From a virus (Duplodnaviria > Caudoviricetes): DNA of 29,740 nt. A program made the translations under genes and the position numbers. The stretch lies in IMG/VR virus record IMGVR_UViG_3300008116_000433, positions 1 to 29,740 of that record. One strand, 5' to 3'. Of this stretch, positions 228-12,052 are shown in pieces. Positions within the stretch are counted from its first letter, which is position 1; each line of letters opens with the position of its first letter. The notes under the pieces were generated by a model, which ran no database searches, was not told the origin of the DNA, and was given only the letters and a program-made list of their open reading frames with translations.

Positions 228-503
228 CTAGTTGAACTGTTCTCGTGGCGGTGCATCTGCCATGTTCATTTCCGTGAAGCAGTCCAACGCCATCTGCAAC
301 TTGCTGGCCGACTCCATCTCCGACAGGTTGATTGTCCGAATCTTTACAACCGGAAACCCTTCTTTCGCAATGATGACTACCGCCTGCACATCAGACTCTT
401 TTTCGTAGCACTCAGACAGCGCTTCAATGACTTCTTTGAAGTGTTCTTGTGCTTCTTCAGACATCGAGGCTACACGATCGAAAAATGCTTTGTCATTGCC
501 CAT
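228..503 (-). CDS. Hypothetical protein
   Basis: 91-aa ORF tightly packed in the minus-strand operon; GGAGG upstream. Confidence 0.7.
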   Translation of the reverse strand: MGNDKAFFDRVASMSEEAQEHFKEVIEALSECYEKESDVQAVVIIAKEGFPVVKIRTINLSEMESASKLQMALDCFTEMNMADAPPREQFN

Positions 504-766
504 CTGAGTTCCTCCAAGTTGTCTTCACGAGCGACGAAAGTGAATCCTCCGGCGGCGTTGATCTTGTCCAATTCCCTTTCCTGTAGTGCTGTAAGTTGTC
601 CCTTTCCCGCTTTGCATTCAACAGCTCCGAATAGACCTGCATGGCACAGAATAATGTCAGGTATACCAGCCCTACCGTAACCATTAGCAGGAGGAAAAAA
701 GTAATAAATTTCCATTGCATCAAGCAGTCTCCTTACTTTTTGTTTGACTTTGGCCTCGGGTGTCAT
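470..766 (-). CDS. VRR-NUC domain nuclease
   Basis: MTPEAKVK...GIPDII...AVECKAGKGQLTALQ is the PD-(D/E)xK VRR-NUC pattern; AAGGAG upstream of ATG 766. Confidence 0.88.
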   Translation of the reverse strand: MTPEAKVKQKVRRLLDAMEIYYFFPPANGYGRAGIPDIILCHAGLFGAVECKAGKGQLTALQERELDKINAAGGFTFVAREDNLEELRWAMTKHFSIV

Positions 767-905
767 TGAATTCGCTCCTTGCGTATGGGCTGATACTTCG
801 TCTCTCAAGGCAAGACACGCAAATCCAGCGGTTAACCGTTCCTCTCCTTTGTACCTGCCCGCCCTCTAACGGGCGAGTCATCTGACAACCGGTACAAAAT
901 TTCAT
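720..905 (-). CDS. Small zinc-ribbon protein
   Basis: MKFCTGC...WICVSC (two CxxC); GGAGAAGCG-ATG at 905, coupled to the upstream stop. Confidence 0.65.
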   Translation of the reverse strand: MKFCTGCQMTRPLEGGQVQRRGTVNRWICVSCLERRSISPYARSEFNDTRGQSQTKSKETA

Positions 906-1015
906 CGCTTCTCCATTAGTGTTTTGTATGTGATCCAACCAGACACCGCAACCGTTATGCCAGCGCCGATCAGCACGCCAGCCAACACCAAGAACAGCAT
1001 TGCAAGATCAATCAT
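902..1015 (-). CDS. Small single-TM membrane protein (37 aa)
   Basis: Not in ORF track: MIDLAMLFLVLAGVLIGAGITVAVSGWITYKTLMEKR; fills the gap exactly, with overlapping start/stop. Confidence 0.6.
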   Translation of the reverse strand: MIDLAMLFLVLAGVLIGAGITVAVSGWITYKTLMEKR

Positions 1016-1217
1016 TCTTCTTCCCCTTGAAGATGTCTATGAGCTCGGCATATGCTGCCTTGCTTTGCTCGTGGGTTTTGGCAAGCACAACGTCACGCGC
1101 CGCTTCGTACACCTCAGCCATCTGCCGTAACAGCTTGGCGGCTTCGATGTCATCCTCGTTTCGTGGCATGTGCAGAAGCTGGTCAGCCAGCTGATGCGCT
1201 CTATACTTGACGCTCAT
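1008..1217 (-). CDS. Hypothetical protein
   Basis: 69-aa helical ORF coupled to its neighbours. Confidence 0.65.
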   Translation of the reverse strand: MSVKYRAHQLADQLLHMPRNEDDIEAAKLLRQMAEVYEAARDVVLAKTHEQSKAAYAELIDIFKGKKND

Positions 1218-1443
1218 TGTCGATCCCCCTCGCTTTCATCATCGCGTCTGCCATCTCATACGCCCACTTTGCGCATAACACTATGTCAAGGTAATCCCCT
1301 GTCGGGCACGAAGCGATGTTGCCTTGCATCGCCTTTGCCGCAAAGTAATCGCGCAAGTCCATGCCTTCGTGGTCACAACCTACCCAATTTCCTTCGTGGT
1401 TCCATCCAGTTCCTGTGGGAAATGCTTTTGTTTGATTTACCAT
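1201..1443 (-). CDS. Conserved phage hypothetical protein (GMxLRDYFAAKAMQ family)
   Basis: AFP...GMDLRDYFAAKAMQG...AYEMADAMMKAR motif, widespread in phages. Confidence 0.8.
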   Translation of the reverse strand: MVNQTKAFPTGTGWNHEGNWVGCDHEGMDLRDYFAAKAMQGNIASCPTGDYLDIVLCAKWAYEMADAMMKARGIDNERQV

Positions 1444-1607
1444 CTGGCTTCTCCATGTGTTTCCGGCGCAGGTGCCGCCGGTTTTTCTTGTTTGACTTCG
1501 GGCTTGATCACCATCTTCCAGCCCTTCTGTAGGAATTTGACGGCGTTGTCTCGGTACTCGAACTTCCGAAAGAGTTTGCCGTCTTCGTCATAGACCCAGT
1601 ACCTCAT
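1437..1607 (-). CDS. Hypothetical protein (56 aa)
   Basis: Not in ORF track: MRYWVYDEDGKLFRKFEY...; ATGA overlap with the upstream gene; fills the gap. Confidence 0.65.
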   Translation of the reverse strand: MRYWVYDEDGKLFRKFEYRDNAVKFLQKGWKMVIKPEVKQEKPAAPAPETHGEARW

Positions 1608-1903
1608 TGGAGTTCTTTCAGTTCTTTTGTGCGCTGTAAGCTCACAGCGGACTGATCTTCCAACACGGCACGAACACCTTCAATGTAGTGTGCTATAGCG
1701 GCTTCTGCATCTTCGAACCTTTGGTTCTCCACGTCTCTTGCCACTACCGCAGCCATAACAAATACCACCGCGCCTGATTGTGTAGCAGGGTGTTCTCCGT
1801 TAATTACCGCAGCCAGTTTGGACGATAGATCAAGTGCCCGTTTAAAAATGTTATCGACTTCTGTTTTTTGTTCTTCAGTCAAGTCCATAAAATCGTTCAT
1901 CAA
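1604..1903 (-). CDS. Hypothetical protein
   Basis: 99-aa ORF, GGAG SD, ATGA coupling at both ends. Confidence 0.65.
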   Translation of the reverse strand: MMNDFMDLTEEQKTEVDNIFKRALDLSSKLAAVINGEHPATQSGAVVFVMAAVVARDVENQRFEDAEAAIAHYIEGVRAVLEDQSAVSLQRTKELKELQ

Positions 1904-2496
1904 ACTTCTCCAATCATCAGTTTAATTTTCTTGTACAGCGCCATGACTTGCGGGAAGGAAAGGCTGGCAAGCATGGCATCGGGGTCAAACGTGGTTGCTG
2001 CGGGCGCGACAGGGGAAGAAGATGTTGATAGTGAAGTGACTTTGAGAGAAGCCAGCCCTGCCTCGACCGCCTTCTTCGCTTCACGCGCAATCTTCTTCGA
2101 CTCTTGTTTACGTTGTTGCACTTTCTTCTTGTACGCTTTACCAATAGGCGCGTAAGGTTTATGCGACACGTACTTCCTGTCGGACGTACGCTCGATCAGT
2201 TCTGCATTAAGCATCTGCGTGAGCAGGGAAGACACCGACGAAACGCTGAACCCTTCCTCCTGCACGTGTTTCACGATGTCCGAAAATGCACACCGTGGAT
2301 TACTGAATATGAACGTATGTATGGTACGCGTCAAGTTCTTTTTCGGCTCAGATTCAGGGGTAGCAATAACGCCGTTCTCGACCGCACCACGCTCAGTTTC
2401 CCACTGGTTGATGGCGCTTTTTAGCTCCTCGTTTTTCATTTGCTCCTCCTTAGATTTACTTAATGCTTCTTCTATTGCTGTGCGCATGTCAGGCAT
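1900..2496 (-). CDS. Winged-helix DNA-binding protein (putative)
   Basis: IHTFIFSNP...SVSSLLTQMLNAELIERTSDRKY resembles a wHTH. Start at 2496 (GAGG); second in-frame start at 2439 with a strong RBS. Confidence 0.65.
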   Translation of the reverse strand: MPDMRTAIEEALSKSKEEQMKNEELKSAINQWETERGAVENGVIATPESEPKKNLTRTIHTFIFSNPRCAFSDIVKHVQEEGFSVSSVSSLLTQMLNAELIERTSDRKYVSHKPYAPIGKAYKKKVQQRKQESKKIAREAKKAVEAGLASLKVTSLSTSSSPVAPAATTFDPDAMLASLSFPQVMALYKKIKLMIGEV

Positions 2497-2498
2497 GA

Positions 2499-2756
2499 TC
2501 AACCTCTCGACAAAATAAAAACGTACAGACTAAAACCCAAAGCAAACAGCACGATTGTCGGCAGCACACGCATGATGCGCGGCAGCAGCGGCTCTCTGAA
2601 TGGGGCATCAGACGGGCGTAGCAGCGCGTGCTGCAACAACAGCTCGTCATCCTCTGGCATAGGTCGAGGCGGCTCATAGTACAAACCGATCTTCACCTTA
2701 CCAGTATCGTAGGGCGTGACTTTCCTGCCCAATGATTCCGTTTCTGGTTTTTCCAT
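2499..2756 (-). CDS. Hypothetical protein with C-terminal TM helix
   Basis: PYDTGKVKIGLYYEPP motif plus hydrophobic C-terminus; GGAGG SD; promoter directly upstream. Confidence 0.7.
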   Translation of the reverse strand: MEKPETESLGRKVTPYDTGKVKIGLYYEPPRPMPEDDELLLQHALLRPSDAPFREPLLPRIMRVLPTIVLFALGFSLYVFILSRG

Positions 2757-2775
2757 TTAGGCACCTCCAATTTGA

Positions 2776-2816
2776 ACACTAATTGACTACTAAATCTTTG
2801 TCAAGCGATTGACAAA
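2776..2816 (-). promoter_or_regulatory. sigma70-like promoter with palindrome over the -35
   Basis: Minus strand TTGACA (2804-2799), N17, TAGTGT (2781-2776); palindrome TTTGTCAA-GCGA-TTGACAAA at 2797-2816. Confidence 0.6.
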
Positions 2817-2822
2817 AAGTAA

Positions 2823-2918
2823 TCACATCAGGTCGTAATACAGCAACACATACATCGCTGCCAGCAGGGCAGCGCAGACCACACCGATCCATTCGTACAC
2901 GTCCCAGTCCTCCTTCAT
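2823..2918 (-). CDS. Small single-TM peptide (31 aa)
   Basis: Not in ORF track: MKEDWDVYEWIGVVCAALLAAMYVLLYYDLM; GGAG SD; ATGA coupling. Confidence 0.5.
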   Translation of the reverse strand: MKEDWDVYEWIGVVCAALLAAMYVLLYYDLM

Positions 2919-3127
2919 TTGTCATCTCCCAACGTGGGGGTAATGCGTGGGGGCGTAGCCTTATCGCCTTCCGTAAGGCTGTACCCAACCCATATCGCCC
3001 ACACACCAAGCGTCAGCACCAGCGTGGCGAACCGCGCATCAGGAGACCAGTTGAAAAAGTTGGGCTCAAGTCTGATGAACGTGGTGCACGCGTAAGCAAA
3101 CGCAAAAGCTTTAATCGCTTTTATCAT
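2915..3127 (-). CDS. Small two-TM membrane protein
   Basis: Two hydrophobic segments around FIRLEPNFFNWSPDARF; GAGGA SD before ATG 3127. Confidence 0.6.
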   Translation of the reverse strand: MIKAIKAFAFAYACTTFIRLEPNFFNWSPDARFATLVLTLGVWAIWVGYSLTEGDKATPPRITPTLGDDK

Positions 3128-3329
3128 TTTCATCCTCTTCTTCAATGCGGCGTTTCTCTTCTCGCCTGCGCATCTCTGATGCGTGCCATAACACCAGAGT
3201 GAAGTACATGCCTGCGAGAACCAAAAGGAACTGATTGCTTATTGCACAGTTCCTATCCCAACCAAGCACCGCCAATGCAGCAGACACGACGGTGTTGGCT
3301 ACGAGTATGTAAGGGTTGTTTTGTTTCAT
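3111..3329 (-). CDS. Small two-TM membrane protein
   Basis: Two hydrophobic stretches and a charged tail; ATGA coupling. Confidence 0.55.
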   Translation of the reverse strand: MKQNNPYILVANTVVSAALAVLGWDRNCAISNQFLLVLAGMYFTLVLWHASEMRRREEKRRIEEEDENDKSD

Positions 3330-3535
3330 TGCTCTGTCGGGGGTTTTGAATCATAAATAATATCGATGTCCCGGCACAGCCTGTCCTTGAGTGCCTCTCG
3401 ATCGATCCCAATGGTACGACATGCTCCGATCAGTGCATAGGACATAGCTACAACACTCTCCTTGATTGGCGCATCCAACGATTGCAAGTGGGCAACAATC
3501 GATTCGGCCAACGCACGCACATCATCCTTGTTCAT
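3326..3535 (-). CDS. Hypothetical protein
   Basis: 69 aa; AAGGAGATGCAAAATG leader. Confidence 0.7.
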   Translation of the reverse strand: MNKDDVRALAESIVAHLQSLDAPIKESVVAMSYALIGACRTIGIDREALKDRLCRDIDIIYDSKPPTEQ

Positions 3536-3810
3536 TTTGCATCTCCTTTCATTCTTTTCATAAGGCCAAGTGATTCCCTTGCTGCAACAGCTTGGTCATG
3601 GGACGTGCGGATTATCCCCGACAGGACGCCTAATGTAGCATCAAGCGGCACTGCCGTCGGTGCGCCCGCCAGCATGAACCCCAAGAACCGCGCAAGCGAC
3701 AACATTACCACGCGCTCGTCGTGTCCCTCTGTGAAGCCGATCCTGAACAGCTCCTCCAGTATGGGATCACACTGAGCGTCGATTGCTCTTTTATCAAACT
3801 CATCCATCAT
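3532..3810 (-). CDS. Hypothetical protein
   Basis: 92 aa; AAGGAG SD; coupled to its neighbours. Confidence 0.65.
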   Translation of the reverse strand: MMDEFDKRAIDAQCDPILEELFRIGFTEGHDERVVMLSLARFLGFMLAGAPTAVPLDATLGVLSGIIRTSHDQAVAARESLGLMKRMKGDAK

Positions 3811-4253
3811 TTTCTCCTTCCGTATCGGTTTGAATGTTTACCTTTGGTTACACCCCACTGGTAGCTACGCTTCTCTGCACGAATGTTCCCAAGCACAAGT
3901 TTATTCATGCGCTGCAAAGCAAGCCTGTCCCTGTTTTCTTTTGTTGTTTCTTCGATCTTAGGTTTGACCTCCTTTCTTCTTACACACTCAATGTTCTTCA
4001 TCCAATCAAGCGTCTTGATGTCGTCAGCTCTGGTCGTATCCCACAGCCTGTTAGCCAACGGTTTCATGTAGTCGCCCACCATTTCCTGCACACGCTTACC
4101 CATATACAAATACTCAGGTATGCGCTTCAGTACGTTCTTGTCTCTGATCATGTTGATGTCGTATACCTTCAGCCAGTAATTAAGCTGCCCCACCAATACG
4201 TCAGAACGAAAAGCTTTGATAAGCATGGCGTCGTAAATGCGTTGCTTGTCCAC
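3807..4253 (-). CDS. Hypothetical protein
   Basis: Likely GTG start at 4253 after AAGGAGAAGCACT; the track's extension to 4307 crosses a palindrome and is probably non-coding. Confidence 0.7.
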   Translation of the reverse strand: MDKQRIYDAMLIKAFRSDVLVGQLNYWLKVYDINMIRDKNVLKRIPEYLYMGKRVQEMVGDYMKPLANRLWDTTRADDIKTLDWMKNIECVRRKEVKPKIEETTKENRDRLALQRMNKLVLGNIRAEKRSYQWGVTKGKHSNRYGRRK

Positions 4254-4273
4254 AGTGCTTCTCCTTAAATGGT

Positions 4274-4293
4274 TGGGGGTATCGCTACCCCCA
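4274..4293. repeat. GGGGTA-N4-TACCCC palindrome, copy 1
   Basis: TGGGGGTA TCGC TACCCCCA; intergenic. Confidence 0.85.
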
Positions 4294-4299
4294 TCGGGT

Positions 4300-5502
4300 T
4301 TATGCAACGTGCATCAGGTCGAACAGGTCGAGCAAGCAGAACTCTGCATCAGTCTCGTCCATGTCGTCGATGCACTGCAAGAAGTCATCGATGTCACGCT
4401 CCTTGATCAGCTTGGCGTTCATGTGCTTCAGCGCCAGCTCAGGATCGTCAGGGTACGCCAGCTCGGCTATACGTTTCAACAGCGGCTTGTCATAGCCATA
4501 CTTGAAGTCGATCAGGTCGTCGTACATCTCCTCGCGCCAGCGCTCGTAGTTACCTTTGGCAAACGTGCGCGCTGGCTGGGTCTCGTACATGGTGTAGCCG
4601 CGGCGGTCGTAGGCGTAATCTTCTTCCCACCACGCAGAGTCATACGCGCTGTACGAACTCTTGCTTGCGCCTTTGCTGCTGCCACGCCAGTTGTACATAC
4701 CCCAGCGATCGGTCGGGTCAGGCTGTGTCGGGTCACGGCTGACCGGCAGGTTGTCCCAGTCCACAAGCAGCACCGCAGTGGACAGTTGCTGGAAGTGCAC
4801 AAGGTTGAGCGACTCTTGCTGGCTGTGCTCGTGGTCGTAACCGACGCTGATGTTGGTGCACTCGGGGATGATGTTAACGAACTCGGCAGTGTCAGTGTAT
4901 ATGCCAGTGTCGTCGTTCAACATCATCAGGTGCTCGCAACCTTCCATCAGTGCGTCAGCAAGCGCAGTGCCGAACTCGTTGGAGCAGCAGCGACCGTATG
5001 CCTGATGCGTGATCACTGAGTCGATACCCCTACGGTCGAAGGCAATAGCGCGGTCGAACTGGCGCAGCAAGTCAGGCATACGCTCAGCCAGATACGTCGC
5101 ACCGATGCCGCCCTTCTCCTCGCCTTGAGTGAAGATGTAATACCCCGGCACACCGGCGTGGATCATGTGCATGAGCATCGCTACACCAGCGCCGTCATCT
5201 GCACCGAGCACGTCGCCCTTGGCATGCCATGTGGTTTTGGTTTTGCGTATCTTGTTCTTGCCCTCGGTGCGGTGCACAGTGTCAACGTGTGCAACGAACA
5301 GAGTCTTGTGCTTGTCGTCGGTACGCAGATCGACGTGCAGGTTGTTAACGTCATCGCAGAACGCAGTGGCCTTGAGATGATCAGGTAGTGTGTCGATCAG
5401 CCACAGCGTGAAGTCAACGACGGCCATCGTGTTGTGTGGGCGCTTGCGTGAGAGTGCGTTGTGCAAGACGTGCATAAGCATTGAGTGTTCGCGTGTAGCC
5501 AT
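4300..5502 (-). CDS. M20/M28-clan zinc metallopeptidase
   Basis: Metal and catalytic motifs FVAHVDTVH, LGADDGAG, FTQGEEKGGIG, AFDRRG, NISVGYDHEHS; extra Tyr/Asp-rich C-terminus. Confidence 0.85.
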   Translation of the reverse strand: MATREHSMLMHVLHNALSRKRPHNTMAVVDFTLWLIDTLPDHLKATAFCDDVNNLHVDLRTDDKHKTLFVAHVDTVHRTEGKNKIRKTKTTWHAKGDVLGADDGAGVAMLMHMIHAGVPGYYIFTQGEEKGGIGATYLAERMPDLLRQFDRAIAFDRRGIDSVITHQAYGRCCSNEFGTALADALMEGCEHLMMLNDDTGIYTDTAEFVNIIPECTNISVGYDHEHSQQESLNLVHFQQLSTAVLLVDWDNLPVSRDPTQPDPTDRWGMYNWRGSSKGASKSSYSAYDSAWWEEDYAYDRRGYTMYETQPARTFAKGNYERWREEMYDDLIDFKYGYDKPLLKRIAELAYPDDPELALKHMNAKLIKERDIDDFLQCIDDMDETDAEFCLLDLFDLMHVA

Positions 5503-5504
5503 GA

Positions 5505-7025
5505 TTAAGCTCCTTCGATTGTTAGGGTTGCGTCAGTAGTGATGTCTGCTTCGTACTGGTCGATGTGGTCAGGGTGTATGTTGACGCTGCGTCTGTCGTC
5601 GATCACGCACATGACCACGGGGTCAACGTCATAGCTGTACCACTGGTTGGTGTGGTCACACTCCCAGCACCCCTCGTTGGCGATAGCATACTCGTCGTTG
5701 TCTACGCACAGCACAACGTCATCGTCGTCAGTGCTGTACCAGTAACCGTCGATGTTGATCGCATAGTCAAGCTCCTCGTACTCGCCATTCTCAAGCTCGA
5801 CAATGTTGTTGTCGGACAGGTACTCGTCATGGTAATAGCTGCCGCGTACCTCAACCATGTCCTCGCTGTGGACGTAGTACTCGTAGCCACGTCGACCGTA
5901 CGCATAATAGTAATGGTCGTCGATGCAAGACTCACACACCGATTCGCCGTTGCCGTCGTACGTTGACACGAGCGAGTCCTCGTCAACCCGGCTGTCACAG
6001 TCAGGACATGTGCAATAGTTGTGGCCTTGCTCGCTTGCCCGACCGTCGGTGTTGTCGCATAGCCACTCGCCATCACGCACGATCTTGAGCGCACCGTCAA
6101 CGATGTCGACATACCGATTGTTACCGTCGATGAATGGTGCAAGCACACCCTCGTCGCCCCAGCGTGTCTTGACGGGGTAATACCGCAGCTTGGTACCGTA
6201 CGGGTAGCCGTCAAGTTTGGCGTAGCCTTGCTGCTCAAGCCAGTGATGCAACGCCTCGTCAGCGTAGGAATAGTCGGGACCTCGTTTGTATGTACGAACG
6301 AAGAACCGCTTGTCGTTCTGCTCGCACACCAGAGCGCGACCGTCTACGCTGCTGCCGTTCAGCCGCACCGCCAGACCCCAGCCAAGCGCTGGGGAATACA
6401 CTTCGTATGGGTGTCGGTCGATGCCGTCAGTGCAGCGAATGTAATCGTCGCCATCATTCCAGACCATGCACGATGTCGGACCCCGATGCAGCAGGTCAAG
6501 CATCTCGCGCATGTCACGGCTGATCTTGAACTCATGCGGTGCAGCGTAGCGCGCAGTCAAGTCGCGTACCACATGGTCAGGCAGCAGCGGGAAGTGTCGA
6601 TGCAGATACTTGCCGACGGTCGTGATCAGTTGCTTGTCAGCCAGACCGTCACGATTGTCACGAGTGTAAGCAATGCGTGTCGGGTCTGTCTCTGCGATGT
6701 GCGGCAGCTCAAGCACAAGTCGATGCCAGTCAGCAGGCGGTGCGATAAGCACAGCAGCTTTGACCGCAGGATGAAACTCGAACTTGCGATACTGGTCGTA
6801 GTACCAACGACGCGACACCATGTCGTTGTAGTCACGCTTGGAAAGTATGGTGTGACCAGTCAACCAGTTTGTGCGTGGGTCTCTGATGCGTGTGTACTCT
6901 GTGCCGTGGATGTTGTAGATGTTATTGCCCCAGCTACCCACACGAGCCAAGACTTCAGAAAGCGACATCATCCACGACCAACGCTCTTGGCCGTCGTAAT
7001 CGAATGGGGTTGTGTATGTACCCAT
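5505..7025 (-). CDS. 506-aa protein with SCM-motif domain and Cys/Tyr/Asp-rich C-terminal repeats
   Basis: GPTSCMVW...GRALVC...FVRTY core; C-terminal CPDC...VCESC zinc ribbon and acidic aromatic repeats; AAGGAGAAGCAAAATG leader. Confidence 0.75.
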   Translation of the reverse strand: MGTYTTPFDYDGQERWSWMMSLSEVLARVGSWGNNIYNIHGTEYTRIRDPRTNWLTGHTILSKRDYNDMVSRRWYYDQYRKFEFHPAVKAAVLIAPPADWHRLVLELPHIAETDPTRIAYTRDNRDGLADKQLITTVGKYLHRHFPLLPDHVVRDLTARYAAPHEFKISRDMREMLDLLHRGPTSCMVWNDGDDYIRCTDGIDRHPYEVYSPALGWGLAVRLNGSSVDGRALVCEQNDKRFFVRTYKRGPDYSYADEALHHWLEQQGYAKLDGYPYGTKLRYYPVKTRWGDEGVLAPFIDGNNRYVDIVDGALKIVRDGEWLCDNTDGRASEQGHNYCTCPDCDSRVDEDSLVSTYDGNGESVCESCIDDHYYYAYGRRGYEYYVHSEDMVEVRGSYYHDEYLSDNNIVELENGEYEELDYAINIDGYWYSTDDDDVVLCVDNDEYAIANEGCWECDHTNQWYSYDVDPVVMCVIDDRRSVNIHPDHIDQYEADITTDATLTIEGA

Positions 7026-7065
7026 TTTGCTTCTCCTTATGTAGTTGTGTTAGCCGTACTTGCGG

Positions 7066-7087
7066 TTGGGGGTACGGCTACCCCGAA
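7066..7087. repeat. GGGGTA-N4-TACCCC palindrome, copy 2
   Basis: TTG GGGGTA CGGC TACCCC GAA; intergenic. Confidence 0.85.
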
Positions 7088-7101
7088 TCGTTACTCGTTA
7101 A

Positions 7102-7290
7102 TCACTCCTTGAAATAAGACACGCTGAGAACTTCACGATAGAAAATGCGAGCGTTCCTAGTGTGAATGTCCTCATCTGGAAAGGCGAGTCGTGCGTACTT
7201 CTCGGCGCACTCCTCTGTCTCGAACAGGTTATGCCAGCCTCCGTATGTTTCGTAGTCTGGATCGCCTTGCACATACCACACATGTTTCAT
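7102..7290 (-). CDS. Hypothetical protein
   Basis: 62 aa; GAGGAGG SD; ATGA coupling. Confidence 0.7.
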   Translation of the reverse strand: MKHVWYVQGDPDYETYGGWHNLFETEECAEKYARLAFPDEDIHTRNARIFYREVLSVSYFKE

Positions 7291-7550
7291 TTGTTTTCCT
7301 CCTCGATAAAGTTCTCAAACAAATCGCCGAACGCAGAGAACAGTTTGCGTCGGTTAACCATGTCAGCGTGATAAAACGCTTTGGCTATACACGCTGCGAA
7401 ACTACCGCCTTGTGTTTCCATGCGATGCGCTGCTGCATACACTGCGCCCTCGCTGTACTTCTCGCACAGTCCCTCGAATGTAGGTTGTGCGTTAAGGTGT
7501 GAAATGTGGAGCTTTAGTTGCTCGACAATACGATCTGCATCAGTAGGCAT
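7287..7550 (-). CDS. Hypothetical protein
   Basis: 87 aa with the METQGGSFAACIAKAFYHAD...NRRKL..AF pattern seen in small phage proteins; AAGGAGAAGCAACATG leader. Confidence 0.75.
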   Translation of the reverse strand: MPTDADRIVEQLKLHISHLNAQPTFEGLCEKYSEGAVYAAAHRMETQGGSFAACIAKAFYHADMVNRRKLFSAFGDLFENFIEEENK

Positions 7551-7722
7551 GTTGCTTCTCCTTGTGTTGGTTGATTTTGTTTGCTACATACATCACATAA
7601 AGCGTTGTGAATATTGGGTAATCCTCACGCAGCAGGTAGTAAGTCCCCAGCTTGCCGTAAAGATTCAAGTCATCTCTTACTCGTTGCACTAGCCAATAGC
7701 GGCCAACGTATCCTGTTTTCAT
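7540..7722 (-). CDS. Hypothetical protein
   Basis: 60 aa; GGAGAAAGCAAATG leader. Confidence 0.6.
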   Translation of the reverse strand: MKTGYVGRYWLVQRVRDDLNLYGKLGTYYLLREDYPIFTTLYVMYVANKINQHKEKQHAY

Positions 7723-8105
7723 TTGCTTTCTCCGTTGTTGGTTACTAGCTCGTTTATCTCAACCTCATCGCCCAGCTTGGACGCCACGAAACAACGCATT
7801 GCTGCGATCAATGGTGTGTTTGCGGTTTGGATTGCGCTTGTATCGCCGCGTTGAGAATTCCATTCACCATCGACCCCAACCCAAACAGCTATGCACTCGC
7901 GCTCAATGATCGGACCGCCTTGCGCCCAGTCATATGCGTAGTTGAACGTGACCTCGTTGTACTCACACGGCACGGTGCTACTAGGCACACGCAGCTTGGC
8001 CTGCCCATTCCATGTGTACAAGATGCCTCGGGCGTCCACTCCATCAGCCAGTGCTACGGCGTAATTGAGCTGATGCCCTTCCAGTTCAGCGGTTTTGACT
8101 TTCAT
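7719..8105 (-). CDS. NinX/DUF2591-like phage protein
   Basis: MKVKTAELEG..LNYAVA...DWAQGGPIIERECI...TPLIAAMRCFVASKLGDEVEI; start 8105 after AAGGAGAAGCAA. Confidence 0.8.
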   Translation of the reverse strand: MKVKTAELEGHQLNYAVALADGVDARGILYTWNGQAKLRVPSSTVPCEYNEVTFNYAYDWAQGGPIIERECIAVWVGVDGEWNSQRGDTSAIQTANTPLIAAMRCFVASKLGDEVEINELVTNNGESK

Positions 8106-8313
8106 TTGCTTCTCCTTCACTCAATGATAAATACACCCTGTCAAGCAGTTGCTCGAATATGTACAGCGCGTCTTCCCTGTGCATGCCGTCAGCATAAAAA
8201 CCCGTCGCTGCGGTTTGCAGTAGCACGACAATGCCTTCTTCGGGATTCAACCCCGACGACATCAGGCGTACCATGATGTCCTCAGATACTTGCGTTGCAA
8301 TACTTTTACTCAT
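8086..8313 (-). CDS. Hypothetical protein
   Basis: 75 aa; GGGAG SD. Confidence 0.65.
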   Translation of the reverse strand: MSKSIATQVSEDIMVRLMSSGLNPEEGIVVLLQTAATGFYADGMHREDALYIFEQLLDRVYLSLSEGEANESQNR

Positions 8314-8432
8314 TTAAAAGTCTCCCTGATTAGTTCCCACAGACATACCAAAGCGCCTGCTGCTATTACCCACATAAACAAACCCGTAGGTATCAGCACA
8401 AATATCAGTAGTACCCATTCAGCGATTGTCAT
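8310..8432 (-). CDS. Small membrane protein (40 aa)
   Basis: Not in ORF track: MTIAEWVLLIFVLIPTGLFMWVIAAGALVCLWELIRETFK; AAGGAGAGAGCAAATG leader; ATGA coupling downstream. Confidence 0.65.
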   Translation of the reverse strand: MTIAEWVLLIFVLIPTGLFMWVIAAGALVCLWELIRETFK

Positions 8433-8646
8433 TTGCTCTCTCCTTCACTGCTTCGATGGCCTGCCCGATGACGTCCCAATTAACGCCGATGTGTGCGTCG
8501 AATGTCCGAGCGATCAGGTGCATGACTTCCAGTGCCTCGTCATCTGTCAGTTCGATGTCCATCTCACCAGCTTGGCCGTGGATGTCTGACTCGTCCCAGT
8601 CATCACGCAGGATGGGTTTTCCGTTTTCAAAGATTACTTTTGGCAT
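8419..8646 (-). CDS. Hypothetical acidic protein
   Basis: W..SDI...LTDDEALEVM...DAHIGVNWDVI pattern; AAGGAGAAGCAAATG leader. Confidence 0.75.
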   Translation of the reverse strand: MPKVIFENGKPILRDDWDESDIHGQAGEMDIELTDDEALEVMHLIARTFDAHIGVNWDVIGQAIEAVKERANDNR

Positions 8647-8665
8647 TTGCTTCTCCTTTCATCGG

Positions 8666-8687
8666 TTGGGGGTACGCTTACCCCCAA
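8666..8687. repeat. GGGGTA-N4-TACCCC palindrome, copy 3
   Basis: TTGGGGGTA CGCT TACCCCCAA, overlapping the stop codon of the 8678..9400 gene. Confidence 0.85.
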
Positions 8688-9400
8688 TGCTTCAAAACCC
8701 CATGCCATGTCAGCGGCACAGGCGCGTCCTCGGGGAATTTCCCCGAATCCAGAATCTTTATTGCTCTGTTGATAAGTTCGATCTGCTCGTCGGTTTCCTC
8801 GGTCGGGTTGGCTCGGTGTTCCCTGATGGCCGCGTCGAGTGCTTTGTCGGTGCGTTTGCGCAGCGCGTTGCGCTTTTGCAGGGCAGAGGCGACGTTGATA
8901 GTGCGCTCGAAGGGCTTCTTGACCTTTGCCTTGAAATTGCGTGGTATGGCGTCAAACAAGGCCGTGATTTTGGCCTTTACGTTATCCGGCACCCAGTCTG
9001 TCCAATGCTCGCCATTGTTCGGGATGCCCTTCTCCTTTGCCAGCCTGCGGGGCGTGAGCTCGTACGCCTTCCAATACTTCTTGAGTAGGTTGCGCGCCTT
9101 GATCAGCGTGATCTGGTACTGCTCGATCGCAGCATCGCGTTCTGGCACGTTGTACGCCCTGCTGATGTAGCGTGCCATCGACTTGACGCTTTTCAATTCC
9201 GAATCCAGCGGGGCTAAGACATCGCCCCAGAGGACATCATGCTGCTGGCGTCGCATGTGATCAGCCCGTTTAGATTTTCGGTATTGCTGGACTTCCTCGA
9301 CGATCTGGGAAATTTCGATGGGGCGCTTGCCGCGTTTTTGCAGCTCTCGCACCAATGCGTTGTGCGGCATGGCCGCGTACACGTTCATGAGTTTTGGCAT
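8678..9400 (-). CDS. Hypothetical basic protein (240 aa)
   Basis: Long ORF with AAGGAGG SD; HWTDWVP and PLTWHG motifs; function not recognised. Confidence 0.75.
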   Translation of the reverse strand: MPKLMNVYAAMPHNALVRELQKRGKRPIEISQIVEEVQQYRKSKRADHMRRQQHDVLWGDVLAPLDSELKSVKSMARYISRAYNVPERDAAIEQYQITLIKARNLLKKYWKAYELTPRRLAKEKGIPNNGEHWTDWVPDNVKAKITALFDAIPRNFKAKVKKPFERTINVASALQKRNALRKRTDKALDAAIREHRANPTEETDEQIELINRAIKILDSGKFPEDAPVPLTWHGVLKHWG

Positions 9401-9446: not shown

Positions 9447-9760
9447 TCGGACAAAGTGTCCGAAACTGTCCGTTGATTTTGAAGTGTTGGACACCCAATC
9501 GGACACTGAAAACCTAGTGCTGGTGCGGGTGAAACGAAAAACTGTCCTAAGTATATATGTTTTTTCAGGGAGACTAAAGCCAAAAGAAACAAAGCAAAAG
9601 TCGAGAGCCGAGAAACGCACACACATAAATATACTCTTATATATATACATGTAATTAGAAATAGATATATATATAGGACAGTTTTTGGACAACGCTAGTA
9701 TTGGCGCGGGTTTTGAGTGTCCGATTAGGTGTCCGAAACGGTAAAATCTACGGACACCCC
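9447..9760. other. Candidate replication origin: nested inverted repeats, GGACA/TGTCC iterons, AT-rich core
   Basis: 11 GGACA/TGTCC pentamers; 28-bp IR 9487-9514/9709-9736 (25/28); perfect 13-bp IR 9537-9549/9674-9686; (AT)n tracts at ~9626-9675. Confidence 0.5.
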
Positions 9761-9773
9761 CGGATACTAGATT

Positions 9774-9802: not shown

Positions 9803-10006
9803 TCATACCCACTCGGCATCGATGACGCTGGCGTAGTATTCGTGCTCGAATCGTTTGTCGCACATCGAACGAAGCACCACGAAGCCGGTGCTGCTGGGTT
9901 TATGGGGCGGCGTGCCGCTGATCAGGATGTGGGCGTCGTCGCGGAAGTCGTGGACGATCTGGCCGAAGGTGAGTTCTTTGCCCGTGGTTTTGCTGATGAG
10001 TTTCAT
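9803..10006 (-). CDS. Hypothetical protein
   Basis: 67 aa; PPHKPSSTG...EYYASVI motif; AAAGGA SD. Confidence 0.75.
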   Translation of the reverse strand: MKLISKTTGKELTFGQIVHDFRDDAHILISGTPPHKPSSTGFVVLRSMCDKRFEHEYYASVIDAEWV

Positions 10007-10017
10007 GGTGTGTCCTT

Positions 10018-10203
10018 TCAGATACGGAAGTTGGGGTTGGTGTGCAGGTTGTACTGCTTGGCTACTTCGAAAACGTGCTGCTGTGTGCCGGTAGTGCGAG
10101 TGCTGCGGTAGATCGCCGATAGTCCACGCGCTGCGGCATCTGGGTTATCGACGAGCAGGTGCATCAGGGAGCGATCGACGAGTTTGCGTTCTTGCTTGGT
10201 CAT
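10018..10203 (-). CDS. Hypothetical protein
   Basis: 61 aa; AARGLSAIYRS motif; AAAGGA SD. Confidence 0.7.
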   Translation of the reverse strand: MTKQERKLVDRSLMHLLVDNPDAAARGLSAIYRSTRTTGTQQHVFEVAKQYNLHTNPNFRI

Positions 10204-10235
10204 GATTTTTCCTTTCGGGTTAGGTTAGACAGAGA

Positions 10236-10266
10236 ATGAAACAGCGGCCACCCCTCAGATGGCCGC
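10236..10266 (-). terminator. Possible intrinsic terminator
   Basis: Minus-strand GCGGCCAT/GTGGCCGC stem followed by TGTTTCATT (weak U tract). Confidence 0.35.
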
Positions 10267-10280
10267 GTCGAAAAAGATTC

Positions 10281-10296
10281 GGGGTACGCTTACCCC
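10281..10296. repeat. GGGGTA-N4-TACCCC palindrome, copy 6
   Basis: GATTC GGGGTA CGCT TACCCC CAAAATC. Confidence 0.85.
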
Positions 10297-10301
10297 CAAA
10301 A

Positions 10302-10727
10302 TCACTCAGCATCAAACGAGATGCCAGCCTTGACTTCCGCCAGAATCGCTGCGAGCTGCGCTTTGGATTCGACGCCGGACTCGATCAGCAAGTCCTGAAT
10401 CGCACCGACGAGCTTTGCATCGACCTTCGGCGCAGCGGCCTTCTCGTGACGCGACGATGCAGTAGCGGCCTCGTTCTTGGGGTGCATCTTGCGAAACTTC
10501 TTGAGTTGCTGATACGGCGCGGAATCCTTCTCGAATGTAGGCAAACCGGTTTGCTTGGACTCGTGCGACTCGACGCCGTAGTGCTCGGCAAGAATCGCGG
10601 CTACTGTGATGATCCACTTCTTGAGCGGCATCGATGCCGCTTGCTCTGCGACCTTGCCGTCAGCCTTCAGCATTGCATCGCTGGCCTTGATGGAATTGAC
10701 GATCAGGGTTTTGATTGATGTTGACAT
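10302..10727 (-). CDS. Hypothetical protein, first gene of the leftward arm (141 aa)
   Basis: AAAGGA SD before ATG 10727; Ala/Lys-rich. Confidence 0.75.
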   Translation of the reverse strand: MSTSIKTLIVNSIKASDAMLKADGKVAEQAASMPLKKWIITVAAILAEHYGVESHESKQTGLPTFEKDSAPYQQLKKFRKMHPKNEAATASSRHEKAAAPKVDAKLVGAIQDLLIESGVESKAQLAAILAEVKAGISFDAE

Positions 10728-10857: not shown

Positions 10858-11101
10858 CAAAATCACCCCCTCGGCGATGCGAAATCGGCAACAGCGATCC
10901 CCACCGTACCCCCACCCCCCTAGAATTTTTGACGGGGGGTGCTCCCACACGAACACTATTCCGTAGCCATCCCCATTTCTCCGTTATCACTTAGACAATT
11001 AGTCCCACCACGGGACCCCCCTCCCGCGCAAACCCGCGACACCCCCATCATTTTGCAAAAATTCAAAATTACTCTGTCTAAACTTTGACTGTTTAGGCCA
11101 C

Positions 11102-11123
11102 AAAAAAGCCCCCGAAGGGGCTT
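11102..11123 (-). terminator. Intrinsic terminator
   Basis: Minus strand AAGCCCC-TTCG-GGGGCTT followed by T run; C(UUCG)G loop. Confidence 0.85.
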
Positions 11124-11290
11124 GATTGCGCGGTCCTGTTTCTTGGTCACGCTGACCTCAGACGGGGTAGATTAGCCGTCGATGCTTCCGCTTATGCTCG
11201 GTGTTGGAACAGGTATGGACAGGCTGCATTCCCCTGCAAGTAGTAGGCCGAAGCGCCCCTTTTACCCTTGACCTGCCCATACATCTTGGC
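11102..11290 (-). ncRNA. Candidate structured ncRNA (two multi-branch domains plus terminator)
   Basis: 12-bp stem 11213-11224/11271-11282 with two G-U pairs valid only on the minus strand; further stems 11135-11140/11208-11213, 11161-11180 and 11145-11157. Confidence 0.45.
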
Positions 11291-11297
11291 TTTTGAG

Positions 11298-11326
11298 AAA
11301 AAGACCCCCAGACCGGAGCTGGGGGT
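11298..11326 (-). terminator. Intrinsic terminator
   Basis: Minus strand ACCCCCAG-N7-CTGGGGGT-CTTTTT. Confidence 0.7.
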
Positions 11327-11398
11327 AAAAATCGTCCCACGGTGAGAAGAGACGAGAAGGAGAAGCAAATGGAAAGCGTTACCGCTTGCGCACTTGCA
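11298..11398 (-). ncRNA. Candidate trans-acting anti-RBS sRNA
   Basis: Own promoter; AAGCG-GUAA-CGCUU hairpin; unpaired seed CCAUUUGCUUCUCCUUC; hairpin 11332-11355 plus U5; second terminator. Seed is complementary to early-gene RBSs. Confidence 0.6.
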
Positions 11399-11414
11399 AA
11401 TCAGAATATACACT
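11386..11414 (+). promoter_or_regulatory. sigma70-like promoter for the packaging/structural operon
   Basis: TTGCGC (11386-11391), N17, TACACT (11409-11414), ~30 nt upstream of terS ATG 11444. Confidence 0.6.
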
Positions 11415-11433
11415 CCGCCCAACGAGGTTGCAA
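11405..11433 (-). promoter_or_regulatory. Divergent sigma70-like promoter (candidate sRNA promoter)
   Basis: Minus strand TTGCAA (11433-11428), N17, TATATT (11410-11405). Confidence 0.6.
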
Positions 11434-11443
11434 GGACCTGCGC

Positions 11444-12052
11444 ATGCTAGACCACCTGATTGACTTTACGCCCGATGTGGAACCGGATTCCACCGGTGTC
11501 CTGCCGCTTGCAAAAGCGCATCCCGCCAATGCGGTAGATGGCAAGGTCGAGACGGCCGACTGGCTAAAATCACTTGGAGCCGCGGGCGACGAGGTGTTGA
11601 CCGAAATGGGGGCCGAAGCTTCCCGCCAAGCCTTCTCCAACCTTGTCACCGGTCAAGCCCACGAACAGACCCACGCCGCACTTGCCAAAGTACAAACCCC
11701 CGCCGCCGTACAACATCTGGTCGGTATGCTCTCCGCATACGATTGGGAATTTGTCGAGCGCGCCAAAGAGATTCGTGGCTACGCCGTAGCCCAACTGCTG
11801 GAAGAAACCCGACACCCCACCGCGTCCGTGCGGCTAAAAGCCTTGGCCCTTCTGGGTAAAGTGACCGAGGTGGGATTGTTCACCGACAAGATCGAGGTCA
11901 AGAAGTCCGATCTGTCCGACGCCGAACTGGACGCCCGGATTAAAGAGAAGCTGGGCAAGATGGCCAAGATCGTCGAGATTTCTGAAGTGCAGGATGTCGA
12001 TGTCAAAGACTTGACAGGGGGTGAGGATGAACAAGCCGATCCTGAGTCCTGA
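11444..12052 (+). CDS. terS: Terminase small subunit (putative)
   Basis: Directly upstream of and overlapping TerL; RLKALALLGK...GLFTDKIEV motif. AAGGA SD before ATG 11444; alternative in-frame ATG at 11369. Confidence 0.7.
   Translation: MLDHLIDFTPDVEPDSTGVLPLAKAHPANAVDGKVETADWLKSLGAAGDEVLTEMGAEASRQAFSNLVTGQAHEQTHAALAKVQTPAAVQHLVGMLSAYDWEFVERAKEIRGYAVAQLLEETRHPTASVRLKALALLGKVTEVGLFTDKIEVKKSDLSDAELDARIKEKLGKMAKIVEISEVQDVDVKDLTGGEDEQADPES

Follow-up and report, generated by a model that had tools for sequence, protein, structure and literature searches.

The stretch of DNA analysed here (the window) is 29,740 nt of the IMG/VR record IMGVR_UViG_3300008116_000433 and consists of a leftward arm, in which most genes are small, and a rightward arm carrying terL, portal, GroES and capsid genes, with a candidate RNA element at the point where the two arms diverge (Table 1). 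The TerL of the window has approximately 51 % identity to those of the Pelagibacter phages HTVC027P and HTVC023P and of phage DSL-LC04. In a complete relative of 62 kb with terminal repeats (G001), the leftward arm runs on into genes for DNA polymerase A, an SNF2 helicase, an exonuclease and a primase; judged by gene content, including that of the G001 arm, the leftward arm of the window appears to be early and non-structural. The first gene of the rightward arm encodes a 202-aa protein whose alignment begins at Met 11444 in 14 of 14 homologues. This protein had no PHROG or Pfam profile match, and a fold search gave nothing at E≤0.001, with the PaP3 small terminase appearing only at E 2.6 (model pLDDT 53.6). 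Its designation as terS is a presumption from position, which its place before terL fits. No cultured isolate was found with the protein. There were three matches in GTDB: the element was present on a 1.7-kb contig of a Limnohabitans metagenome-assembled genome (MAG) and on an 84-kb contig of a Chitinophagales MAG, binning of this kind not being proof of a host, and was absent from the third match, in Smithella.

Table 1. Features predicted at the divergence point and along the two arms of the window
Feature	Coordinates	Strand	Basis or value
Predicted gene for a small RNA of ~101 nt, comprising stem P1, an unpaired pyrimidine linker, hairpin P2 and terminator P3 with its U tract	11298..11398	-	Folding and conservation
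-35 hexamer TTGCAA of the predicted RNA promoter	11428..11433	-	TTG-type hexamer with a 17-nt spacer predominates in 121 loci
-10 hexamer TATATT, predicted start near 11398	11405..11410	-	17 nt from the -35
P1 stem: 5' GCAAGUG with CAUUUGC (11371-11365; the half of the seed complementary to spacer and AUG), topped by GUAA hairpin AAGCG-GUAA-CGCUU (11387-11374)	11365..11397	-	Folds
Predicted toehold: unpaired linker UUCUCCUUC, the complement of GAAGGAGAA (Shine-Dalgarno and two A)	11356..11364	-	P(unpaired) 1.0
P2 hairpin, followed in the window by U5 (11331-11327)	11332..11355	-	Structure kept in nearly all relatives, sequence variable
Predicted intrinsic terminator P3 and U tract (hairpin 11326-11304), one-directional	11298..11326	-	5/7 pairs with compensatory changes
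Putative divergent promoter of the gene before terL: TTGCGC 11386-11391, 17 nt, TACACT 11409-11414	11386..11414	+	Sequence
Presumed small terminase gene, 202 aa, helical, conserved, directly 5' of terL	11444..12052	+	Start ATG 11444, not 11369
Predicted target, start 8646, 15 nt perfect complement	8644..8658	-	Complementarity
Predicted target, start 8105, 16 nt perfect complement, best predicted target	8103..8118	-	Net cofold -20.8 kcal/mol
Predicted target, start 7025 (506-aa gene), 13 nt perfect	7023..7038	-	Complementarity
Predicted target, start 7550, 12 nt perfect	7548..7563	-	Complementarity
Predicted target, start 4253 (GTG), 11 nt perfect	4251..4266	-	Complementarity
Predicted target, start 2439 (weak transcription-regulator PHROG match), 8 nt perfect, 15 consecutive pairs including one G·U	2437..2451	-	Complementarity
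Remainder of the left arm after the initial ~2 kb, with additional predicted targets at starts 9400, 8432, 7722, 7290, 3810, 3535, 1900, 1443, 905	228..9400	-	-17 to -24 kcal/mol
The three genes that open the left arm (starts 10727, 10203, 10006), which escape pairing	9803..10727	-	-5.8 to -7.3 kcal/mol

The 101-nt minus strand of the element folded at -41.1 kcal/mol (z -5.4), a value equalled by 0 of 200 shuffles, compared with -30.8 kcal/mol (z -2.5) for the plus strand. A preliminary description made from the sequence had placed here a minus-strand promoter (TTGCAA-N17-TATATT, start near 11398), a GNRA hairpin at 11387-11374, a second hairpin with five U residues and a second terminator, and all of these were recovered without change of coordinates. 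The same description took the whole seed (11373-11356) to be unpaired. This was borne out for the linker, whose core positions were paired in only 2–9 of 115 folds, but not for CAUUUGC, which pairs with the 5' GCAAGUG in a conserved stem. Two RNAs of ~72 and ~100 nt had also been proposed; the expected length is ~100 nt because the second terminator marks the end that is conserved, and the five U residues after P2 that would end the shorter form are present only in some related loci. Immediately after the terminator of the RNA, the minus strand of 11096-11297 contains a second structured, terminator-ended non-coding stretch, possibly a read-through product or a second RNA, about 105 nt of which is common to the related loci L002, L003, L006 and L007, with an insertion of ~54 nt in L001.

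Promoter-like sites were not above chance across the window (10 compared with 9.4±2.9 expected), and therefore the evidence for the promoter of the RNA is its conservation and not its match to the consensus. Among 121 related loci the -10 box, which itself served as the extraction anchor, was TACACT in 63, TATACT in 45, TATAGT in nine and TATATT in four. The putative plus-strand promoter of the gene before terL has a -10 box that overlaps that of the RNA and a -35 box that falls within P1; its -10 box was TACACT in 56, TACATT in 35 and TATACT in 20 of the 121 loci, and the -10 region common to both promoters is often palindromic. The link to a packaging promoter that had been suggested for the RNA is thus upheld in the form of a bidirectional promoter region common to the RNA and the gene in front of terL.

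Three protein scans (with the 11444 protein and two relatives) identified 198 viral loci; from 199 sequences, of which 10 were too short and 56 were duplicates, 133 distinct upstream regions were obtained. The element was extracted automatically in 121 of these regions (length 72–130 nt, median 91), and the remaining 12 showed the same parts with a longer leader. The minus strand folded better than the plus strand in 111 of 115 loci. For P1, 89 % of cells were paired over eight pairs in 41 sequences, with 0 of 500 shuffles matching the value for the whole structure, in a count that leans toward P1 because the structure had been named beforehand from single folds. Five of the eight pairs varied on one side only, chiefly in the 5' strand (A/G and C/U switches, with G·U pairs), while the 3' strand stayed UUGCU; as the 5' strand switches against a fixed 3' strand, the 3' strand carries constraint beyond the stem. 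RNAalifold applied to a MAFFT alignment recovered the terminator alone, since P1 and P2 vary in length. A covariance model built from the 41 sequences gave one strong match in each of 10 long records. When it was applied to 80 loci from a search for more distant relatives, 74 had a match at E≤1 and 47 at E≤0.01, and every match lay on the minus strand immediately in front of the gene. The model gave nothing at E≤1 in the 18–25-kb terL regions, as distinct from the whole genomes, of HTVC023P, DSL-LC04 and MinM2. Rfam, in which no family for the element exists, gave no gathering-level match for it or in 20 related loci. The family as a whole is large and uncultured, with ~1100 sequence stretches estimated from one scan, and is related through TerL to HTVC023P-type phages. 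Conservation and strand-specific folding make it very highly probable that the element is a conserved non-coding RNA gene whose predicted product is a real RNA.

Several variants were noted among the relatives. A UUGGCC-NNN-GGCCAA sub-hairpin occurs in P1 of loci L067, L079, L081, L107, L146 and L165, which are some members of several separate clades, and is missing in close kin. Two loci (L199:9828-9908 and L289:9414-9492) contain a distant variant in which two anti-Shine-Dalgarno stretches (UUUCUCCUUU and UUCUCCUCCUU) replace hairpin P2. Phage DSL-LC04 has a repeated CATAC-GGAGAAA start tag before genes following its annotated small terminase (L241:7380, 7611, 8200 and 9104).

The window contains three exact copies of the 15-mer AAGGAGAAGCAAATG. 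One lies within the element, on the plus strand at 11357-11371; the other two are minus-strand copies at the starts 8646 and 8105. The 15–16 bp of perfect pairing claimed earlier for these two starts was found in full, and of the further starts described as near-perfect, 7025, 7550, 4253 and 2439 have the pairing listed in Table 1, whereas the term was generous for 7722 and 3535, with perfect complements of 9 and 7 nt (8 nt at start 8432). Net cofold energies were -14.4 kcal/mol for start 8646 and -12.2 kcal/mol for 7025, compared with -1.2 kcal/mol for 11444 and -4.3 kcal/mol for 10727. As a control for chance, antisense matches of at least 11 nt were counted between 101-nt segments and the 21 called left-arm start regions, from which the gene caller had missed 8646 and 8432; the element matched four of the 21, and 0 of 1179 other window segments matched more than one.

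The proposal that an early regulon is matched by the seed fits most of the leftward arm but not its first few genes, which escape the predicted pairing. Across 11 genomes, 12 of 38 genes in the first ~2 kb of the arm reached -12 kcal/mol, compared with 142 of 231 genes further along. The paired starts of G001 included those of the helicase (-19.3 kcal/mol) and the polymerase (-17.0 kcal/mol) but not those of the primase and exonuclease.

Other features of the leftward arm and its intergenic DNA were also observed. The complementarity between the element and gene 8105 (8088-8118 against 11356-11386) spans 31 nt at 81 % and continues into the start of the coding sequence, which may reflect extended pairing or the trace of an inverted duplication. 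A GGGGTA-N-TACCCC palindrome, operator- or ESAS-like, is present in six copies in left-arm intergenic DNA (7068, 8668, 9427, 9776, 10280 and 10841), one of them right before the 8646 target, and the exact pattern was found in 25 of 265 loci. Nested long inverted repeats surround an AT-rich core at 9455-9768 in an arrangement resembling a replication origin. A stretch of intergenic DNA at 10860-11060, situated between the element and the early promoter region and rich in runs of C and G, may be a packaging or genome-end site.

The distribution of ribosome-binding-site (RBS) sequences was strongly biased between the arms. Among unique start regions, GGAGAA was present in 488 of 993 in the left arm and 66 of 450 in the right arm, and AG[CT]AAATG in 103 of 993 and 2 of 450, respectively, these counts being drawn from related, non-independent phages with gene calls made for this analysis. 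In the 10 long records and the window, 55 of 324 minus-arm starts bearing a Shine-Dalgarno sequence reached -18 kcal/mol or lower, compared with 0 of 203 plus-arm starts. Pairing with the seed was significantly stronger for minus-arm starts in 10 of 11 genomes (P<0.05), the exception being G005, which has a degenerate seed (P=0.085); locus L199 is uninformative in the arm comparison, its upstream DNA not being early arm. A generic anti-Shine-Dalgarno sequence also paired somewhat better with minus-arm sites in most records, indicating that Shine-Dalgarno strength contributes to the arm bias. Shuffling of the spacer letters weakened early-arm pairing from -13.99 to -11.79 kcal/mol, whereas late-arm values were -10.02 kcal/mol observed and -10.17 kcal/mol shuffled. 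These data make it highly probable that the predicted RNA pairs with early starts.

Co-variation of seed and RBS across relatives, named in the preliminary description as a check, was present between lineages and loose within the near family. In a comparison of eight seed classes, the class's own seed paired above average in eight of eight and best in four of eight (permutation P=0.0002), compared with none of five classes in a late-arm control (P=0.69). This test retained 8 of 23 tag classes, each with at least 12 start regions, and dropped 15, among them one mis-anchored on P2; the permutation leaves some kinship, and several classes consist of just one clade or one locus. For the GGAGAATCA seed class, matching starts numbered 6 of 19, compared with 3 of 403 in the main class, and for the GGAGAAAGC seed class 33 of 101 starts matched, compared with 1 of 101 for the short tag. 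However, within the main class mismatched GGAGAAAC sites (51 of 403) outnumbered exact GGAGAAGC sites (29). In the near family, all 16 long-seed loci had majority-long sites, while short-seed loci were split between long (21), short (21) and ties (4), and a tree test of short against long seeds contained three independent well-supported pairs and was not significant. A test of G·U tolerance on the targets gave 27 of 32 against 14 of 37 with a strict pattern but lost significance when the pattern was relaxed (P=0.12). The seed is nearly constant over most of the family and changes outright in distant lineages. Support from co-variation for the proposed pairing of seed and RBS is therefore good but not clean.

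Two properties expected of a trans-acting RBS-occluding small RNA (sRNA) fit the element on the grounds of sequence and conservation, namely its own promoter and intrinsic terminator without a reading frame, and an accessible conserved seed complementary to RBSs located elsewhere. Pairing of an sRNA from the Shine-Dalgarno sequence through the AUG excludes the 30S subunit and represses translation. The preferred reading, which is reasonably probable, is that the element is the gene for a predicted trans-acting sRNA of ~100 nt that blocks the RBSs of most leftward genes and spares the rightward structural genes; that the pairing represses its targets is, taken separately, a likely prediction. 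The free UUCUCCU linker would dock on AGGAGAA of a target mRNA, which would then displace the 5' strand of P1 and extend the pairing over GCAAAUG. The Shine-Dalgarno sequence, spacer and start codon would then be covered and the 30S subunit excluded. Because the -10 boxes of the RNA and of the packaging-arm promoter overlap, the RNA would be expected to rise late: fired from the -10 palindrome, it could accumulate as late transcription proceeds and templates multiply, and bring the synthesis of early proteins down, possibly as assembly begins. The chances that the RNA is a late switch are about even, its approximate timing being deduced from the shared promoter.

The timing is where the strongest alternative departs from this reading. 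The same RNA, with the same targets, might be produced as soon as infection begins, or in a carrier state, and serve as a rheostat or as a c4/CI-like immunity factor, acting also against superinfecting relatives. The promoter of the RNA is near the sigma-70 consensus, and near-consensus in all loci, so that host polymerase could fire it early; the first genes of the arm are spared, as expected if they run while the RNA is present, and the nearly constant seed would give cross-immunity. This alternative is nevertheless unlikely, given that the overlapping -10 boxes tie the RNA to the packaging arm, that late-arm sites avoid the seed (which matters only if the RNA and late mRNAs coexist) and that no integrase match was found among 30 scanned early-arm proteins of G001, a part of the genes of that record.

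A second alternative is that the main reader of the common RBS tag is a protein, for example a nuclease resembling RegB or a regulator of translation, or that the tag does no more than tune translation; the RNA would then have another job or use the tag only secondarily. RegB of phage T4 cuts early Shine-Dalgarno sites with the consensus GGAGRAYARAA (PMC3014915), which is similar in flavour to the tag found here. Imperfect matches between seed and tag are common, and the RBS tags of cluster K and EF phages, discussed below, are kept in Hurricane, KiSi and AnnaSerena, where no antisense copy is present. However, a decoy for a protein would bear the sense motif rather than its complement, seed and tag co-vary at the level of lineages in the early arm only, and the pairing depends on the order of the spacer letters, all of which leaves a protein reader improbable.

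It is very unlikely that the element specifies a general anti-Shine-Dalgarno RNA that shuts off host translation, with the matches to early phage genes arising as a by-product. The free linker does complement the common Shine-Dalgarno sequence, and the best Rfam scores of the element were those for the Betaproteobacteria toxic small RNA (RF02278; 24.3 bits against a threshold of 50, the gathering level thus not being reached) and anti-hemB (RF02837; 22.8 bits against 49.5), in a match spanning the 3' half only. An anti-Shine-Dalgarno action of the Betaproteobacteria toxic small RNA was reportedly described by Kimelman in 2012. In 20 contigs of a Limnohabitans MAG, used as a stand-in for the host, only 2 of 110 Shine-Dalgarno-bearing starts reached -18 kcal/mol or lower, however, and only 10 of 96 GGAG sites in the Limnohabitans sample continue with AA. 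It is just as improbable that pairing activates or stabilizes the targets or that the RNA is a guide or scaffold for a phage protein; the stable three-stem scaffold, in which P1 is freely extendable (sub-hairpins are inserted in several lineages), could bind a protein, but the predicted pairing spans the Shine-Dalgarno sequence to the AUG, an arrangement established to exclude the 30S subunit. Least credible of all is the alternative raised in the preliminary description, that the motif is a plus-strand RBS for a longer terS starting at ATG 11369, or else serves a leader peptide or is a DNA operator without any RNA, because although the frame from this ATG is open into the gene in the window, it is open in only 2 of 121 loci, the window and one locus identical to it in this region (no ATG in 55, ATG out of frame in 50, in frame with a stop in 14), the conserved start is Met 11444, the motif does lie upstream of the plus-strand promoter, as had been noted, and the stems depend on G·U pairing, which is possible in the minus-strand sequence only.

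A possible parallel to the proposed sRNA exists in cluster K mycobacteriophages. Their non-structural genes carry a 13-bp RBS tag (start-associated sequences, SAS), with one reversed copy in K1 phages, and the 2011 report gives the function as unknown (PMC3203893). According to a 2024 report, late transcription appears to begin between Adephagia genes 92 and 93, and the role of SAS is still stated to be unknown (PMC11373665). The reversed copy was found to lie in a predicted 10-nt hairpin loop between these two genes (L265:28560-28780, corresponding to Adephagia 58559-58779; also L264:29871), in a region that occurs in 182 phage records. Among 12 phages the loop was perfect in four, matched at 8 of 10 positions in four and was absent in four. 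Co-variation of loop and SAS was looked for in cluster K and not found, the SAS being unchanged in seven of seven right arms, and the cluster EF phage AnnaSerena had no reversed copy. The two systems are alike in having an over-conserved RBS tag limited to non-structural genes and a complementary copy exposed in the RNA; they differ in that the sequence and phage are unrelated and that the reversed SAS appears to lie in a late leader rather than in a separately terminated RNA. The reversed loop of K1 phages is a candidate antisense partner of SAS. As the cluster K tag persists where the loop is lost, such tags can outlast an antisense partner or have another reader.

Temporal control in phages has mostly been described in terms of polymerases, sigma and anti-sigma factors, antiterminators and nucleases such as RegB, and a single RNA acting on 10–20 of a phage's own genes would add a regulon-wide RNA layer. 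A more general model, put forward tentatively and with somewhat less than even confidence, is an RNA-only early-to-late switch in which a late promoter emits a toehold RNA against a regulon with a private, co-evolving RBS address, reached independently by unrelated phages that include the cluster K mycobacteriophages. If the prediction is true, the element offers an explanation, open to testing, of why RBS tags such as SAS are over-conserved, and it represents a compact programmable repressor scaffold. In the full-text literature searched, outside which most subscription papers fell, no account was found of the element or of a phage sRNA directed against its own early regulon; 38 uncharacterized phage sRNAs are tabulated in PMC12197685, and the contents of that table may bear on novelty.

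Among known systems, repression by pairing over an RBS has been described for the sRNAs B11 (PMC10470900) and c4 (PMC12197685). The c4 antisense RNA of phages P1 and P7 is, like the predicted RNA, phage-encoded, structured and trans-acting, and pairs near the RBS of a phage mRNA to block translation; it acts on one operon (ant) in temperate-phage immunity, whereas the element has sites at 10–20 genes across an arm (PMC12197685). The Rfam C4 model was not among the 13 Rfam matches of the element at E≤10, nor was it matched in the 20 related loci. RF02278 and RF02837 share with the element a CU-rich single strand before the terminator, but are chromosomal and are given as of unknown function in their host (PMC4603805). 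B11/6C (PMC10470900) and cuckoo (PMC4615179) are sRNAs with an exposed anti-Shine-Dalgarno stretch, and B11 represses many genes through RBS pairing; they differ in being host-encoded, with seeds in hairpin loops and short pairing limited to the Shine-Dalgarno sequence. In the element, by comparison, a linker toehold is predicted to be followed by a sequestered extension over the spacer and AUG, and the putative targets are the phage's own genes, which vary with the seed. Assignment as a cuckoo RNA was rejected, as this requires two to four hairpins each with the loop motif CCUCCUCCC, whereas the seed of the element is a linker present once, UUCUCCU. The T4 RegB endoribonuclease is a functional analogue in that it inactivates early mRNAs through an extended Shine-Dalgarno tag and spares late mRNAs, but it is a protein nuclease with S1 as a cofactor and not an RNA (PMC3014915). 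The element is a member of none of these groups, and resembles c4, B11 and cuckoo in its predicted working and RegB in its predicted outcome.
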